Below are positions 26,613 to 61,036 of a stretch of DNA of 64,000 bases, piece after piece. The stretch covers positions 16,010-80,009 of the forward strand of contig CAXXSM010000091.1 of the NCBI GenBank assembly GCA_963663405.2, given 5' to 3'. The DNA comes from a bacterium. GTDB lineage: Bacteria; Hinthialibacterota; Hinthialibacteria; Hinthialibacterales; Hinthialibacteraceae. Numbering within the stretch: position 1 is the stretch's first letter; each line of letters opens with the position of its first letter. Both the position numbers and the translations under genes were made by a program. The notes below the pieces were generated by a model. That model did no database searches and was not told the DNA's origin. It saw only the letters and a list, made by a program, of their open reading frames with translations.

Positions 26613-28238
26613 ATGTATCTCGACTTTTTACCATATGATTCAACATCCTTTCCAATTGACTCCCGATCCGGCGTTTCTCTTGCTGAGTCCGAGTCACAAA
26701 GAAGCGTTGACTTCTATTATTTATGGAATCGACGATCGAAAAGGATTTGTTGTAATTGTAGGAGAAACCGGAACGGGGAAGACTACAATCGTCCGCACAT
26801 ACTTGGAAAACCGCAGCAACTTCCACGTACAACACGATAAAGAAAAAGGGGAAAACTTCAATCGTCCGCGTCAAACAAAGGCAAGGGAAGACCGCAAACG
26901 GATCAAACCGATCTACCTTTTTTTTAACGCGGAAGTCACATTTAAAGATCTTTTAAAAGAAATTTCCCGGGAATTAGACGTCAAAGTGGAGAATGACAGC
27001 CTGTTGGTGATGGTCCGGAGATTATATCAAGCACTCAGCGATGAATACCAAAAGGGATACAATATCGCCCTTATCATCGATGAAGCCCAAAACATGACCG
27101 TCGAAACGTTAGAAGAACTGCGTATGCTCTCCAACCTGGAAACAAGTAAAGAGAAACTGCTTCAAATTGTACTGGTCGGGCAGCCGGAACTGGATCAGAA
27201 GTTGAACCTTAATAAACTCCGACAATTAAAGCAGCGTATTGAAATCCGCGCCAATATCAAACCACTCACCAAAAAGCAGAGTATGACTTATATCCTGCAC
27301 CGCTTATCCCAAGTTATCGTACCTGAAGATCGAATCCATACAATCTTCTCACCTGGCGCGTTGAAAGAGATCATTAAATATTCAAATGGGATTCCCCGCA
27401 TAATCAACAATGTCTGCGATAAGACTCTCCTCGCTGGTTTTTTCGATAAACAGAAACCGGTCTCAGCGCAATTGGCCAAAAAAGCGATCTCAGAACTGGA
27501 AGGTTATCAACAACCACACTGGCTTCGCCGCTTCGCGCCCGCTGGGAGCGCAGCAATCGCAACGGCAACGATTCTCACATTCCTGCTGTTTAATCCATTC
27601 TCCAACCGTGATTCTCAGCTGATCACAGAAAAGGGTAATGATACAAACACAACCATCCCCCCTAAACGCCAATCCGGACGAACCCACAATCGGCGCAATG
27701 ATACAGTCATCCCCTTCTCCAACGCTTATTTCAAATTCTTCAATCCCAGAGCCATCAGCGGTTCCAACCAATGGAAATTATACTCCAACGCAGAACGTGA
27801 TTTCTAATGATCCGACCGCTGCTCCTGATCATGCCAATAGACCGACACCTTCTACCACTATAGAAATAGCGCCATCAGTAACATCCACAATCGCCCTCTC
27901 CCGCGCCTTCCGCCACATCGACTCTCGTTCCAACCCTCCAACCGACATCCACTCCACCGCCGGTGATCCCTCCAACTTTAACGCCTGCGCACGAGACGAA
28001 CTCTGACAACAATACCGGTGGAAAAACAGAGACAAAAAAACCAATACAATTCCCAGTAATCAAGATCGTAAAACGGGGGGATAATCTTCTCACTCTCTGC
28101 AGTGAGATCTATGGCGCCACTCACAGCCAGATTATCAATCTAGTGAAAGAACATAATCCCGAAATCAACGATCCCGATATTATTATCACCGGTCACAAAA
28201 TCATATTCCCAGAATACCCACCCAAAAACAAAAACTAG
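26613..28238 (+). CDS. ExeA/GspA-like AAA ATPase with TM helix, Pro/Thr linker and C-terminal LysM domain (frameshifted)
   Basis: MYLDF..HPFQLTPDP start after GAGG; Walker A GETGTGKT; IIDEAQNM; LRMLSNLET; LVGQPEL; GIPRIINNVCD; LysM-like VKRGDNLLTLCSEIYG...NPEINDPDIIITGHKIIFP in the last fragment. Confidence 0.88.
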
Positions 28239-28355
28239 CGAAAAAATCCAAAAAAGGATCGATCTTCCACCTCATTCCCTGCAGACAAATCAATAAATGG
28301 ATGGTATGATTCAAAGATAATACTATCATTCCAGTACCAACAGGGGGACAGTGAA

Positions 28356-29657
28356 ATGTTGAGCCGAACCGTTTCTTTTACTATCGCTATTATGCGCGGT
28401 TACCAGCGTTCCATACGCTCAAGAATTGGGAGAGCCTTTTGCCAGTAACAACCGAGGAAAATGCGCAGCAATTTCCCGATGTTGTCTACAACTCTCATAA
28501 TAATCAATTTCTCGCCGTGTGGGAACATGTTGAACAGGATTACTCGCGGGATATATACGGAATCCTTTTAGATGGGGATTCCGGACAGCCAATAGGAGAA
28601 CCGATTCTTTTCATCGTCGATGATAATATCATCGAAGCCCCGGAACTCGCGTATAACAGCGTGGATAACGAATATCTCTTAGTCGCCCGCAGCCGGTATA
28701 ATAATATGGCGTTCGCGCAGCGCGTTTCGGCGCAGGGGACAGCCGATTGGTGATCCGATTGAGATCGAGAGCAGCGGGGGTCCTACGTTTTTCGATCCAG
28801 CGGCGCGCGCCCGCGTCGTATCCATCGCCTATAATGCGGTAGATAATCAATATTTAATCGGCCTGGGGGATCAGCCACGCGCCCAAATTGTCTTTGCCGA
28901 CCTTTCTCTTGACATCCCCTTCGATCCATTCGGAAACGGCACGAATCCAGCCGCCGCCTGGTCCAGTGTCAGCAATGTCTATCTAATGGCCTGGGAGGAT
29001 CGGGAAACACGCGCCACCGGAGAGGAAAACCTAAGCGCCCAGTTAATATCCAATACGGGTGATCTTATTGGGGGATATCATAAAGATCCGCGATCAGGAA
29101 TTCGCAGAAGAATCACCCCCGCATCGCGTATAATCCAGATGACGATCAATTCCTTGTGATCTGGGACGAACGCATCGGTTTTTCGAGCGGTCCTTGATCC
29201 ACAGACTCTGACGGATACGATCGGCCAATTGATCAGCGCCGATGGACAAATGGTAGGCGATCCTATTCCCATTGAAGCGGGCACGGCGTATACGTTGCGG
29301 CAAGATGTAGACTACAGCCAAATTGCGGGGCAATATTTGGCTGTATGGAAAGGGGATGAAAGTGGAGATTTCGCGTTCGCGGATATCTTCGGTCGATTTA
29401 TCAACCGGGACGGCCCTCTCGCCAGCGATATTTTTCTGATCTATGACGCCGGAGACGATAATACTAACGAAGGGAACGACCAACAATACTATGATGAATC
29501 CAAACTCCCCGTGACCGCCGTCAATACGAACACAGGCTCATTCCTTGTGGTCTGGGAAGAAGCGGGGATCAATCGCAATCCGGAAGACCGCGATATCTAC
29601 GCTCGTTTCGTTTCCGCGCCGGGCACATCGATTGATGCGTGGGAGATTTATCAATAA
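28356..29657 (+). CDS. Secreted seven-repeat beta-propeller-like protein (frameshifted), ending TSIDAWEIYQ
   Basis: Signal peptide from ATG 28356; repeats VVYNSHNNQFLAVWE, LAYNSVDNEYLLVA, IAYNAVDNQYLIG, AAWSSVSNVYLMAWE, IAYNPDDDQFLVIWDE, VDYSQIAGQYLAVWK, AVNTNTGSFLVVWEE. Confidence 0.8.
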
Positions 29658-39447: not shown

Positions 39448-41131
39448 ATGAGAGTAGTACAAATTACTATAGTATTAGGATTATGCGGAGTATTGGCGGC
39501 CTCGGGTTGGGCGCTTGATGTGGAAGTAAACAAATCCGGTCCCGTTACAACGATTCAAGATGCGGTTGATCAGATCGGCGATCAAGGCGGTGTCATCACA
39601 ATCACCGACAGCGGTATCTATGAAGAGACGGTGTTGATCGGAAGCGACATGGCGAGAACCGGTCAGCCAATCACACTCACATCGACCCAGACAGGTGACG
39701 ATCGTCCTGTGATTTCACCTCTCGCCACATTAGGGCCGTTTGTGGAAGCGCAACGAGCCGACCGATTGGCTGGGGTGGCTCTCTTCATCGATGGCAGCAT
39801 AATCTCAAATGTGATTTTAGAAGCCAACCCAGATGCGCAGGGAGTCGGCGCAAACGGAAGTTGCGCCCTTTTCGTGATGGCGGATAACGTCACGATGGAG
39901 AACGTCCTGGTCCGTCCTCGCGCAGGAACGGCTGGAGAAACCAATTATCCCAACTCCGCTGTTTTCTATGCGCAGGAAGGCGCTGGGGAAACCGCCGAAG
40001 CGGGAGGACGCAATTGCAACGGCTGTGTCGTCCGCAATTGTGATTTTATGGGCGTCGCTACGGATGGAGTGACTGAACCCACCGTTGATGGGATGACCTG
40101 CTTCTTAAATTCGAAAGAAAACGGCCAGTTTGCGACCTTCTTGCGAACCGACCATTTCACCAATAGCGACGATCAACAGGTGACGATTACAGTCGAGAAT
40201 AGTACGTTCCGTTATTCCTACGACGCGGGTCTCTTCTTCTCCAACCGCGCAGGGGGAGCGGGAAGATTGACACTGGATGTGAAAGATTGCTATTTTGACG
40301 CATTCGGTAAATTTCAGATCGGCGTCCGGGGCGTATGGCTGAATGTCGAACGCTCTATTTTCAGCCGAGCCTGCCAGGGCAATCATGGAGATGGTGAAAA
40401 TTCAGCGATCCGCATTCAAGAGCAAAACGGCCGTATCCCCGACGCGAATATCTCCAATTGTCTCTTCGTCAATTGTGGCGGCGCCTATGCGAAAAAAGCG
40501 TATTACGGCGGTGTAAACAATCACAACGCGGGCGTTGTCAACGTGAATCATTGCACATTCGATCTCTGCTGTTCCGGCGTGACGTTGAATAGTCCAAAAC
40601 CGGAAAGCGTTTTGAATGTCAGCAACTGTATCTTTAATCGTATCGGTTACAACGCCTCCCCCGCCATTGATGAAGTGGGCTTGCTTCCGGAAACAACCGA
40701 TCCTTATGTCCTTTGGTATTCCGCCAATTTTGAATCAGGCGGCAACATATCCGCCGTCTTCAACAATTACACAGATTCAGGGAACGGTGAATTGAATGTC
40801 ACCAACTGCATCGTAAACGACATCGCGGAAGAGGACAGCGGTGAATATCTTCCCGGCGATCCTCCTCTTGGTACACGACTTTCGGCGGGCACAGTGAATA
40901 TGACCGACGTGACACGCGCCGATCCCCAATTCGCCAATCTCGATATGAACGGAGATACGCCCTACGAATTGGCTGAAGGCTCCCCCGCCATCGACGCCGG
41001 TGTTGATGGAGAACCAGCCGCTGGCGACCTCGATCTCGATGGTTCCGCCCGCCCTTGCCGGTTCCGCCGTTGATATTGGCGCGCAGGAATACGGTTCAGA
41101 AACCGCTGTACTAGAATGGTCTATCTGGTAA
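39448..41131 (+). CDS. Secreted right-handed beta-helix protein with choice-of-anchor-Q-like end; corrected C-terminus DIGAQEYGSETAVLEWSIW
   Basis: RBS AAGGAG; signal peptide ending GWA-L; TIQDAVD; beta-helix coils (ISNCLF, VNHCTF, VSNCIF); GSPAIDAG...DLDGSAR; an indel near 41050 hides the true end. Confidence 0.82.
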
Positions 41132-58271: not shown

Positions 58272-58862
58272 TTATTCATAATGCGTAAACGTATATGGAT
58301 ATCCTTCTGTTAAATGACCCTGTATGGGGGTAAGAATATCTCCGCTACTGGTGATTCCATTCGACGCGTCATATAAAGATGCATAGGGATGGGGTTGATC
58401 AAATAATTGGTTAGGACCATAGCTATACGTAAAGAAAGCCGCATTTCGATTCGATTCATAAAATTCAAGATTGTTCTTAACAGCAATAGACCATATTCCA
58501 TTATTCCAAAATGCGCTTGATTCACAATGATATTGACCTTGATGGTAAGGCCAGTTTGGTTCCTTTAATACTTTTTCTTTTGGAGAAAAAATATCGATCA
58601 TTGATGTTGTCAAATAAGCTATGGGTGTAGTGACATAGCGATGCTGAGCCGGATCCCTATCGACATGAGGAGGCCAATTGTTGTTGTCCATTTTATACAT
58701 CACATAAGCGCTGGCGAGTGATTTTTCTTCTGAGATGACTCGATTTACTTTTGCGCGAATCTGTGCGTTTAGAAAATTGGGCACAGCAATGGCCGCTAAG
58801 ATTCCAATAATGGCTACTACAATCAGTAATTCAATTAACGTGAATCCATCGAGTTGTTTCAT
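58272..58862 (-). CDS. Prepilin-type N-terminal cleavage/methylation protein (GspG-like pseudopilin)
   Basis: MKQLDG|FTLIELLIVVAIIGILAAIAVPNFLNAQIRAKV; LTTPIAY-like VTTPIAYL; SYGPN; YDASNGITSSGDI. Confidence 0.92.
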   Translation of the reverse strand: MKQLDGFTLIELLIVVAIIGILAAIAVPNFLNAQIRAKVNRVISEEKSLASAYVMYKMDNNNWPPHVDRDPAQHRYVTTPIAYLTTSMIDIFSPKEKVLKEPNWPYHQGQYHCESSAFWNNGIWSIAVKNNLEFYESNRNAAFFTYSYGPNQLFDQPHPYASLYDASNGITSSGDILTPIQGHLTEGYPYTFTHYE

Positions 58863-58915
58863 GATACTTTCCTCTAGATACAACGATTTTCAGAATTGAC
58901 TGTAGTGTCTTATGA

Positions 58916-61036
58916 CTAATACATCTGCCAGAGTTTTGCATCGATACTACTTTTGTTGAGAGAAAGCGCCCACATGTCTTCCACGTAGTACGCTTGATCA
59001 TCTTGCACTGTCCAACCACCGAATATTACAAACCGTTTCCGTTTGGAGTCATACACACCACCATGCATCATCCGTATTGTTGGTTTAGGAGAGAGTTCGA
59101 TATGTTCCCAGTGTTCCCCATCCCAGGTCCAGAAATCATCTTTGTTTACTTCATTTTGCCCATGTTCCCAGTATTGATTAGGTCTTCCACCTCCGTATAA
59201 TAAATTTTTACCTAAAAAAGGGATATAAAGAAAACTTGGAAAAAATTTAATTGGAGAGGGTCTGGGTTGGATGGAACCTTCGTCTGTTTCAATCCATTGA
59301 TTGTTTTCCAATTCCAGGATTCTCGTTGAATAGTCTGTATCAGGAACGAAAGCAGCGCCTTCTTCAACAAGAGGGCATTGCTGTTATCTTTTGCCGGTTC
59401 TCATCATATGTTATTCTATCTGTAACTAACATTGGGCCATCTTCGGCAACTAGCTGGTTCCATCGACTACCATCCCAGCTCCAGGTATCGCTCCTTGCAT
59501 TCCCTCCCATATTCCCTCCAAGCATAATGATACTCTGCGATACTGGATCATATTCCATTGAAGCGCTTGCCCGATAAAGAGGATCGGAAACATTCGTATA
59601 ATTGTCCCAAAACTCGCCATCCCAGATCCATGTTTCACCTTTAAATTGCCAACGAAAAGGTTGCTCAGGATCAGGATAGGGGATAGCGCCACCGAAGAGC
59701 ACCGTCACACCGCGAGCTGGATCATAGGCCATTGCATGAAAAGCAATGGGAGGACCATCTTCAGATACTAGTTGCCAATTTTCGCCATCGTATTCCCATG
59801 TATCTGACAAAATAATCCTTTCTTTATTTCCAACTTGATTAATAGGATCACCCTCTCCCTGTAACACATACCCGCCATGCAACACAATTCCGGTCCCGTT
59901 GGCTGTCATACACCATATTAAAAGCCATACGTGGAGATGGTTGAGTATCGGGGGTGAGTTCTGTCCATTGCAGCCCTTGTGCCGCCGCCACATGCAGTCC
60001 AAATAGTGAAACAATCGCGCACAGCATGAATAACATAGCCATTGAAGTAAACGATAACCGCTCTAATGATCTGTTTTTATCCAATATTCTCATGAGTCTC
60101 CTCCTAATGAACGTTTTGTAGTCAATCATTCCAAGTGCGGAGGGCGCAAAATCGGGCAGGTTATTCACCTGCATCACCAATCCGAAAAAACCCTCACCAC
60201 ACTCCTTTCGTGACGCCTTGCTCCATCGCAAGGCGGCATCGTCACAGGCGTACTCGCGTTGTTGATCGATCATGTTGTTTACCCACCAAACCAATGGATG
60301 GAAGAAAAACAATACCCGTGTGATGTTTTGTAAAAAGGAAACCAGACTATCCCAGCGATGGATATGCGCCAATTCATGCAACAGGATGAACCGCAGCTGT
60401 TGATGGGAGTATTGCTCATTCATCAATTTCGGGATGGCAATAACAGGATGAAAAATTCCGTACATTATGGGCGCCTTAACCCAATCTCCGGTTACCCACC
60501 GCACATGTCTTTTAATTCCGGTTTGTTTTTGCAAGGCTTGCAAATCAAATGACAAACATGTTCGATCCAATGGGATGGTGTTCTTGATCATGAAGAGAGA
60601 TTTCCATTCAATCCAAAACAGGCGCAATCCAAACAAAATGACACCGAATCCCCACACTCCGAACAACATGGTTGGAACTGAAACCGGAGTTGGGGAGACC
60701 TCCTTCAATGTGGATTCAGGCTTTGAAACCACTTTGTTATCACTGAGGGATTCATCCGCCACTCCGTCCATTAAGGTACCATTGAATTGGATAGGCGCTC
60801 CAAGTTTTGCTGGCATCTCTTTCATGGATATGAAATGATCTATGAAGGAGAATTGAGGGGGAACAATAAGTTTGATTATCAAAAGCAGAAACGAGAAGAT
60901 ATCCAAACTGGGAACTGACACGCTTGTGTATGAAAAACCATACCAATCCGATGAAACCAAACGCCAAGATGAAGTCTAACGAACGCAAGACCATGAATTT
61001 CATCCAGTGTTCAGAAAAATTAGATAGTGTCTCCAT
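58916..61036 (-). CDS. BlaR1/MecR1-type M56 peptidase fused to a Kelch-repeat domain (frameshifted), ending SSIDAKLWQMY
   Basis: Pieces 60752-61090, 59848-60960, 59364-60014, 58916-59311; ILLHELAHIHRWD, FFFHPLVWW, REYACD; Kelch blades MAYDPARGVTVLFGG, DTWSWDGSRW, YDSKRKRFVIFGG. Confidence 0.85.

Follow-up and report, generated by a model that had tools for sequence, protein, structure and literature searches.

Do three proteins that are encoded in one stretch of bacterial DNA, and that differ in fold but end in nearly the same residues, carry a common C-terminal sorting signal? This question was raised by the initial annotation of a 64,000-nucleotide stretch (G000:C91:16010-80009; the whole of it is hereafter called the window) of a Hinthialibacterota genome (G000; 8.44 Mb, 170 contigs, 46.9% G+C, 82% complete), in which a beta-propeller, a beta-helix and a Kelch domain protein were described as sharing a short ending. 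Our analyses revealed that two of the three tails belong to a genome-wide family, and that the ending is a large, phylum-wide C-terminal tag for which the searches reported below found neither a curated model nor a description, and which belongs to no known signal family.

The terminal motif in the genome and in the window

The core of the ending, W-x-[ILMV]-[YF], was counted in all 17,438 stop-to-stop open reading frames (ORFs) of at least 100 residues in the genome. It stood at the exact end of 123 ORFs and one residue short of the end in 25, against an expectation of 5.8 per position. The extended form [VI]-x-x-W-x-[ILMV]-[YF] occurred 119 times anywhere in the same set, with 101 occurrences at the exact end and 12 one residue from it. 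In the logo of 126 tails, Trp was invariant at position -4 (126) and was accompanied by V (81) or I (21) at -7, by L (81), V (27), I (11) or M (7) at -2, and by Y (93) or F (33) at -1; position -9 was mostly T (55), V (31) or S (19), position -8 was S, P or A, position -5 was D, N or E, and positions -12 to -10 were rich in E, P and G. Approximately 30 further tails ended in H and a few in R. The consensus proposed in the initial annotation therefore needed to be revised to T-[SPA]-[VI]-x-[DNE]-W-x-[LVIM]-[YFH]-stop.

A ten-position profile was built from 125 genome-wide seeds, which are included in the carrier count, and was applied with a cut-off of 8 bits to 6758 ORF-based gene calls of at least 100 residues. 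It matched 158 of them at the end and 37 at the end minus one residue, the control being 0.2 matches per internal position. The genome was thus estimated to encode approximately 190 carriers, corresponding to about 3% of the ORF-based gene calls. All four Val codons were used at the conserved Val position (32, 26, 24 and 24), all six Leu codons were present at the Leu position, and all three stop codons were employed; in addition, no 10-mer was common to more than three of 138 downstream flanks. The use of all synonymous codons together with the lack of shared flanking DNA indicated selection on the peptide rather than a DNA repeat. The tail is thus a portable short linear motif under protein-level selection, which is attached via a short linker that is often rich in Pro, Glu or Gly.

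Within the window, all three tails were found where the initial annotation had placed them. The first (29625..29657, forward strand) comprises the last ten codons and the stop codon of carrier gene 1 (28355..29657, forward strand), which encodes a repeat-rich protein and is spread over at least three frame pieces (28355..28753, 28683..29159 and 29160..29657). This tail closes the ORF 29229..29657 of the same strand, and a single additional residue comes after its motif ("offset 1" form). The second (41102..41131, forward strand) comprises the last nine codons and the stop codon of carrier gene 2 (39448..41131, forward strand), which has a signal-peptide-like N-terminus; its final residue is W, where Y, F or H is usual. 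The frame of this second tail is reached by a one-base shift out of the 541-residue ORF 39448..41073, the single frame break between the two lying at approximately 41035-41050. On the family profile, these tails scored 18.1 and 14.1 bits, respectively, and neither score was equalled by any of 133,775 internal control windows.

The third tail (58916..58951, reverse strand) was a different case. It is the end of the ORF 58916..59311 (reverse strand) and belongs to a gene in three frame pieces (58916..60960, reverse strand) for a BlaR1/M56 membrane protein with a C-terminal Kelch domain (PF05569, PF13415). It ends in W-x-x-Y, with the spacing from the upstream S-S-I two residues longer. Since it scored -3.8 bits on the ungapped profile and 1,782 of the 133,775 control windows scored the same or better, it was judged to be a look-alike and not a member of the family. 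The claim of one motif common to the three proteins accordingly stands for the first two and fails for the Kelch protein. Meanwhile, the orthologue of the latter in G010 was found to be an unbroken open frame of 712 residues which keeps a similar W-x-x-Y end. Carrier genes 1 and 2 and the BlaR1/Kelch gene are all split by single-base frame breaks, which are probably assembly errors, because this orthologue is unbroken.

As to the other features ascribed to the three proteins, the Kelch label was borne out by PF13415, and those of beta-propeller and beta-helix gained no Pfam support, no family being matched by carrier gene 1 or carrier gene 2 at E <= 0.001. Their supposed export or extracytoplasmic location agreed with the two cases that could be checked, namely, the signal-peptide-like N-terminus of the second protein and the membrane protein that bears the third tail. 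No other of the window's 67 ORF-based gene calls ended in the motif; the initial annotation had stated this for the cytoplasmic proteins.

Two other Trp-centred endings were searched in the genome. The W-G-x-[LIV]-K-x-x-Y form had no match at ORF ends, and the W-x-x-[LI]-K form, which was not enriched, had 17 mostly implausible end matches among the ORFs of at least 100 residues. At one locus of another genome (L064, G009:C53), two adjoining long ORFs end in V-x-x-W-x-x-L-K(-x), and a G000 paralogue of a family ending in W-E-V-Y ends in W-E-R-I-K. The W-x-x-[LI]-K ends of this pair and of this paralogue may represent a second variant of the tag.

Carriers, cargo folds and distribution in the phylum

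The 139 strict carriers fell into 63 BLAST clusters (sizes 25, 15, 12, 6, 5, 4, 3 and 3, eleven pairs and 44 singletons). Pfam searches with 60 cluster representatives identified LTD/CotH/LamG/fn3, LRR, sulfatase, GH5 cellulase, S8 subtilase, cohesin and dockerin domains, as well as CarboxypepD_reg, PPC, PKD, FG-GAP, NHL/SGL, CBM9, beta-helix and WD40 families; 38 of the 60 matched no Pfam family at E <= 1e-5, and one (Fer4/CCG) was a probable chance match. According to a home-made heuristic, 121 of 162 carriers of at least 200 residues (approximately 75%) were signal-peptide-like, as compared with 1258 of 4682 other gene calls (27%). Among the 41 carriers missed by this test, many are cut short by frame breaks or have a secretory (Sec) or twin-arginine translocation (Tat) leader that can be recognized by eye, and the pattern-based assignments yielded three lipoprotein-like and four Tat-like carriers. 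Judged from these N-termini, the carriers are predicted to be mostly Sec-exported proteins, some of them with Tat-type leaders. The proposal of a portable C-terminal element on unrelated, mostly signal-peptide-bearing proteins was thus upheld on a genome-wide scale, and the ending proved to be enriched on exported proteins rather than equally frequent on cytoplasmic ones. The use of the tag differed among paralogues, in that it was present in 2 of 34 sulfatases versus 11 of 14 CotH/LTD proteins.

The N-termini of the carriers displayed a feature of their own. Right after the hydrophobic core, a small-x-small-Gln pattern, in which Gln would be the first mature residue, was observed in 82 of 139 signal-peptide-like carriers (e.g., L004, L006 and L011-L013) versus 254 of 1240 other signal-peptide-like genes. 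This pattern resembles the "Q-rule", which a published study describes as Bacteroidetes-specific (PMC5837995). No match to the plant-type glutaminyl cyclase family (PF05096) was detected in the genome.

To locate the tail relative to the cargo folds, two carrier families were inspected in structural models. In the sulfatase carrier L033 (541 residues), the homology to solved sulfatases stops at residue 528 (7ebp), and the AlphaFold model (40 sequences; mean predicted local distance difference test score, pLDDT, of 83) places the final helix at residues 505-525 and assigns pLDDT values below 50 to residues 533-541. Likewise, in the model of a beta-rich carrier family (24 sequences, mean pLDDT of 88.9), the last strand spans residues 338-343 and the tail has no regular structure, with values below 50 for residues 350-354, though the Trp is invariant in the alignment. 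By this evidence, the tail is not part of the cargo folds.

The tail is nevertheless conserved where orthologues could be compared. In nine of nine L020 orthologues (identity of 60-70% across the alignment and of 63-75% within the matched stretch), four tail positions are retained, namely, -7 as [VI], -4 as W, -2 as [LI] and -1 as [YFH], and all the remaining ones vary. In 25 homologues of L015 from 13 genera, the Trp was kept in all 25, and 22 of them end in W-M-x-[YFHQN].

The distribution of the ending was then assessed with a DNA pattern for V-x-x-W-x-L-Y-stop in a phylum sample of 35 genomes from six families, with the pattern read backwards as the control. G000 gave 46 matches (control 6), and the other 19 genomes of family f1 gave 16-43 (control 1-8), the pattern being enriched in all 19. 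Families f2 and f3 gave 4-19 matches (control 0-4) and genus g24 of family f5 gave 16-36. Families f4 and f6 remained at noise level (3-5 matches, control 2-3), and two unrelated metagenome-assembled genomes gave 0 and 1 matches (control 2 and 1). A looser DNA pattern was too noisy for scoring the tag-poor families, and convincing tails were visible in G028 and G025. The ending is thus enriched in most of this small phylum, in agreement with the lineage specificity supposed at the outset. The nearest named RecA proteins, at 74-79% identity, bear the label 'Candidatus Omnitrophota bacterium', and the lineage OLB16, now Hinthialibacterota, was formerly placed in Omnitrophota, as stated in a published work (PMC9324843), both in line with an assignment to Hinthialibacterota.

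Outside the phylum, the corresponding position is occupied differently. Among the best 120 database homologues of the sulfatase, none had the strict core of the source genome, 10 ended in V-x-x-W tails of another flavour, 19 carried C-terminal domains (CTDs) of the T9SS (type IX secretion system) type (PF18962 and/or PF13860), approximately 90-100 residues longer, in the slot of the tag, and the remainder had other tails or none. The tail was therefore not the last structural strand retained in homologues from unrelated phyla, which was the alternative named in the initial annotation. The V-x-x-W-[KQ]-x-L-stop ending seen on foreign sulfatase homologues was not enriched in any of the 35 phylum genomes. 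Many sulfatase homologues (P0011-P0047 and others) were found to share a conserved ending, Y/H-L-P-[LS]-[VI]-x-x, placed behind the same R-L-x-P point, and those few that bear a source name are labelled Caldilineae, Roseiflexaceae or Litorilinea; this tail may be another lineage-specific terminal motif.

Comparison with known C-terminal signals

As the initial annotation had recognized in setting it apart from LPXTG, PEP-CTERM, GlyGly-CTERM and the T9SS CTD, the tail lacks a membrane helix, a basic end and a folded domain, and thus matches none of the known sorting signals. When the last 30 residues of 15 carriers were scanned against NCBIfam and Pfam (E <= 10), no sorting-signal model was returned, the sole match of the 15 tails being to an unrelated NCBIfam entry (NF008628, E 0.052). 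A literature search aimed at the tag, extending over listings, abstracts and some sections of papers, yielded no description of the motif, and a term look-up in the accessible text of a 2023 myxosortase preprint did not find it.

The closest likeness is to the T9SS CTD, which likewise forms the very end of numerous Sec-exported enzymes and adhesins that are unrelated to each other, with many cargos sharing one signal, which has a cargo domain repertoire similar to that of the tag, and which occupies the slot of the tag in the 19 sulfatase homologues mentioned above. However, the CTD (type A, PF18962/TIGR04183; FlgD_ig-like, PF13860) is folded and makes the sulfatase homologues that bear it approximately 90-100 residues longer, whereas the tag has 9-10 residues, follows the cargo fold immediately and is unstructured in the models. 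The CTD is reported to be a folded immunoglobulin-like (Ig-like) 3+4 beta-sandwich (PMC11285876). In the genome, PF18962 had no match, with the control also silent; PF14349 and NF033710 (SprA/Sov and PorV) had no match in this 82%-complete assembly, with the SprA control silent and the PorV control giving one match below the cut-off; and PF07589 (PEP-CTERM) had no match, with the control genomes silent too.

In some T9SS-CTD-bearing sulfatase homologues (P0062, P0072, P0073, P0084, P0086, P0090, P0104 and P0119), the first CTD strand reads [FL]-E-L-W-[QR]-N-[YF] before P-N-P-F, a sequence similar to the V-x-x-W-[KQ]-x-[YL]-stop ends of further sulfatase homologues. This resemblance could hint at a relationship between the short Trp tails and the first strand of the T9SS CTD, and we take it as a lead only.

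The tripartite signals, namely, LPXTG/sortase, PEP-CTERM/exosortase, GlyGly-CTERM/rhombosortase, MYXO-CTERM/myxosortase and PGF-CTERM/archaeosortase, resemble the tag in being short C-terminal signatures on dozens to hundreds of unrelated exported proteins per lineage. They are described as consisting of the signature, a hydrophobic membrane helix and a basic tail, and as being cut by a membrane enzyme, whereas the tag stops three residues after its Trp. The logo of the 126 tails displayed none of the features of LPXTG/sortase (TIGR01167, PF00746) or of PEP-CTERM (PF07589, TIGR02595; PEP motif, helix and Arg-rich end). Nor did it show the helix, basic end or invariant Cys or Gly by which GlyGly-CTERM and MYXO-CTERM would be recognized, and no NCBIfam match was obtained for these either.

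Shorter signals were also compared. The beta-signal of outer membrane proteins is the last strand of the barrel and is hydrophobic at the alternate positions 1, 3, 5, 7 and 9 from the end, and Y-x-F ends of the outer membrane protein type are sensed by DegS. Like the tag, these are short motifs at the end of exported proteins, have an aromatic last residue and are read by envelope machinery. However, the tag is conserved at positions 1, 2, 4, 7 and 9 from the end and its cargo consists of soluble enzymes and adhesins, not of barrels, and no barrel family was present among the 60 Pfam-scanned representatives. Peptides of the PDZ-ligand type are bound by a PDZ domain via a free C-terminus with hydrophobic last residues. 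The tag is terminal and hydrophobic at its end, but 37 of the tails carry an extra residue and no PDZ protein was linked to the carriers.

The WxL domain of Bacillota, in turn, would be a mechanistic precedent for the docking proposed below, not a relative of the tag. It has two W-x-L motifs and is much longer, whereas the tag has a single W-x-L within nine residues and no conserved domain upstream. The WxL family (PF13731) was not found in the Pfam scan of the 60 carriers. WxL attachment occurs via beta-strand complementation (bioRxiv 10.64898/2026.10.17.759780; PMC10599100), in which the acceptor of the donor strand is WxL, an entire though incomplete Ig-like domain, and the system is reported to be confined to Bacillota (bioRxiv 10.64898/2026.10.17.759780), whereas the tag occurs in a diderm-type genome with secretins.

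Proposed function, candidate readers and alternatives

What does the tail do? On balance, we lean towards the reading that it is an address or docking label which acts outside the cytoplasm and is read in the envelope. In this mechanism, the exposed flexible tail would be bound by an envelope component after export and folding of the cargo, and the bound cargo would be either passed across the outer membrane or held at the cell surface. The spacing of T (-9), V (-7), the turn-prone D/N (-5), W (-4), L (-2) and the aromatic residue (-1) is suggestive of either a mini beta-hairpin or a strand added to the sheet of the partner. In the hairpin, T and V would form one strand, D/N the turn, and W and L together with the terminal aromatic residue the other strand, with one hydrophobic face placed onto the sheet or into a groove of the partner. 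Since the position is strictly terminal, recognition may well include the free end. The tag would thereby work like the cargo tags of T9SS or of the sortase type, without a folded domain or a membrane helix. The third tail of the window sits on an inner-membrane-anchored protein; were it really a diverged tag, it would speak for docking rather than for export.

Several points weigh against this reading. No reader, enzyme or conserved neighbour was found for the tag in the genome. The PDZ proteins, approximately 10 in number, are an ordinary set unlinked to the carriers, and the enrichment of pilin-like genes beside carriers is only about 3.6-fold, with the neighbour present in just 2-3 of the 9 orthologous loci. 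A strict free-carboxylate model is weakened by the 37 tails in which one more residue follows the motif, and the sole sulfatase orthologue (G009, same family) keeps T-S-x-V-x-x-W with a diverged end, which indicates that the tag can decay. As for the methods, the signal-peptide heuristic is a crude one, the gene calls are ORF-based and derive from an assembly with many frame breaks, and low AlphaFold confidence is no proof of disorder. Finally, because the controls for the T9SS CTD, PEP-CTERM and SprA were silent, the absence of these from the genome is not established.

Should the reading as an envelope address hold, its meaning would extend beyond this locus. The known bacterial C-terminal sorting signals are tripartite or whole folded domains, and the tag implies a way of reading cargo that is explained by neither. 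It would provide a simple sequence rule to predict the surface and secreted proteome of an uncultured, polymer-degrading lineage, as well as a compact portable label for reporter tests, and it defines a concrete search for a reader. A bolder and rather improbable version would be a new protein-sorting route of a diderm phylum, in which a nine-residue linear address with no helix, domain or cleavage signature and an envelope receptor, possibly tied to the expanded pseudopilin/secretin apparatus, export or display approximately 3% of the proteome.

The search for a reader covered the 839 genes within three genes of carriers, which were clustered. Signals emerged only for pilin-like genes, a large repeat family of secreted proteins, a B12-binding radical SAM family and three operons of a sigma-factor-like gene, an anti-sigma-like gene and a gene for a tag-bearing protein (C118:174033-177578, C170:604-4192 and C21:73407-77548); none of these was convincing as a reader. 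The B12-radical-SAM and sigma/anti-sigma neighbours are too few, and thus cannot explain 190 carriers.

The pilin-like genes bear on the first alternative, to which we give a rather small chance, that the tail is a targeting signal for a secretin/pseudopilin-based apparatus like the type II secretion system (T2SS), or that it serves to dock the cargo to the expanded pilin-like proteins for presentation on a fibre. The secretin family gave 10 matches at E <= 0.01, 8 of them above the Pfam cut-off and some within one gene, corresponding to at least seven secretin genes, and the prepilin-type (N_methyl) pilin-like family comprises 133-143 genes genome-wide. Of the 190 carriers, 16 directly adjoin a co-directional pilin-like gene, as against 29 of the 1159 non-carriers that are signal-peptide-like (Fisher test, p = 2e-4, with an odds ratio of 3.6; the paralogues are not independent), with several gaps of 1-37 nucleotides or overlaps. 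In the window, such a gene (58272..58883, reverse strand; PF07963) lies directly downstream of the third tail. Conversely, this neighbour is found at just 8% of the carriers, it is poorly kept among the orthologous loci, as noted above, no GspC-like PDZ protein was conspicuous in the genome, and, to our knowledge, no T2SS reads a linear signal. Were the pseudopilin link to hold, the tag would give a T2SS-like machine its first linear targeting signal.

Unlikely, in our estimation, is the possibility that the tail serves as a handle for an envelope protease or quality-control factor (PDZ-bearing S41/Ctp or HtrA-type), that is, as a pro-peptide to be removed or as a degron controlling when the cargo matures or is turned over. 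PDZ domains bind strictly C-terminal hydrophobic or aromatic ends, some 10 PDZ proteins are encoded, and the tail appears flexible and exposed in the models. The PDZ proteins, however, appear to be HtrA-, S41-, RseP- and M61-like from their sequence motifs and size, so that the set appears ordinary in type as well as in number, and it is not linked to carriers. Furthermore, a degron on approximately 190 stable-looking enzymes and adhesins that is kept across the phylum would be hard to explain, and there was no indication of cleavage.

An intrinsic structural or self-association role, in which the tail would be a cap folding back on the cargo or a sticky end for co-assembly with no separate reader, is distinctly unlikely. 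Although the tail comes 3-6 residues after the last strand in beta-rich carriers and its residue pattern would fit a hairpin with one hydrophobic face, it is carried by 63 unrelated clusters, including directly after an alpha-helix, and both paralogues and foreign homologues fold without it. In the two models, moreover, the tail is predicted with low confidence and without packing, in spite of alignments in which the Trp is invariant.

A role of the tail in post-translational modification, either as a recognition site or as the substrate, is very improbable; the modifying enzymes would, for instance, be the B12-binding radical SAM proteins whose genes lie beside some carriers. Trp-centred C-terminal cores are substrates of radical SAM peptide-modifying enzymes, and 7 of the 17 members of this family, the domains of which were confirmed with Pfam, are found no farther than three genes from a carrier (p = 0.0018, uncorrected for the 28 families tested), three of them directly beside a carrier and co-directional (C88:3874-7855, C88:46953-51586 and C22:2453-7380). 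However, such neighbours are confined to a handful of the 190 carriers, one apparent pair is separated by uvrB, the statistic is marginal after correction, and the cytoplasmic location of radical SAM enzymes is at odds with carriers that are Sec substrates.

Chance, composition bias, repeated DNA at gene ends or an assembly artefact, for which the many frame breaks and the chance-level score of the third tail might speak, can be given practically no credence and was refuted for the family by the approximately 20-fold or higher enrichment at one exact position, the 0.2 false profile matches per position, the codon usage and flanks, and the enrichment in independent phylum genomes, and it holds for the third tail only.

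Lastly, just upstream of carrier gene 1, a small ORF (27963-28238, forward strand) was noticed by eye to have the look of a LysM-type peptidoglycan-binding domain.

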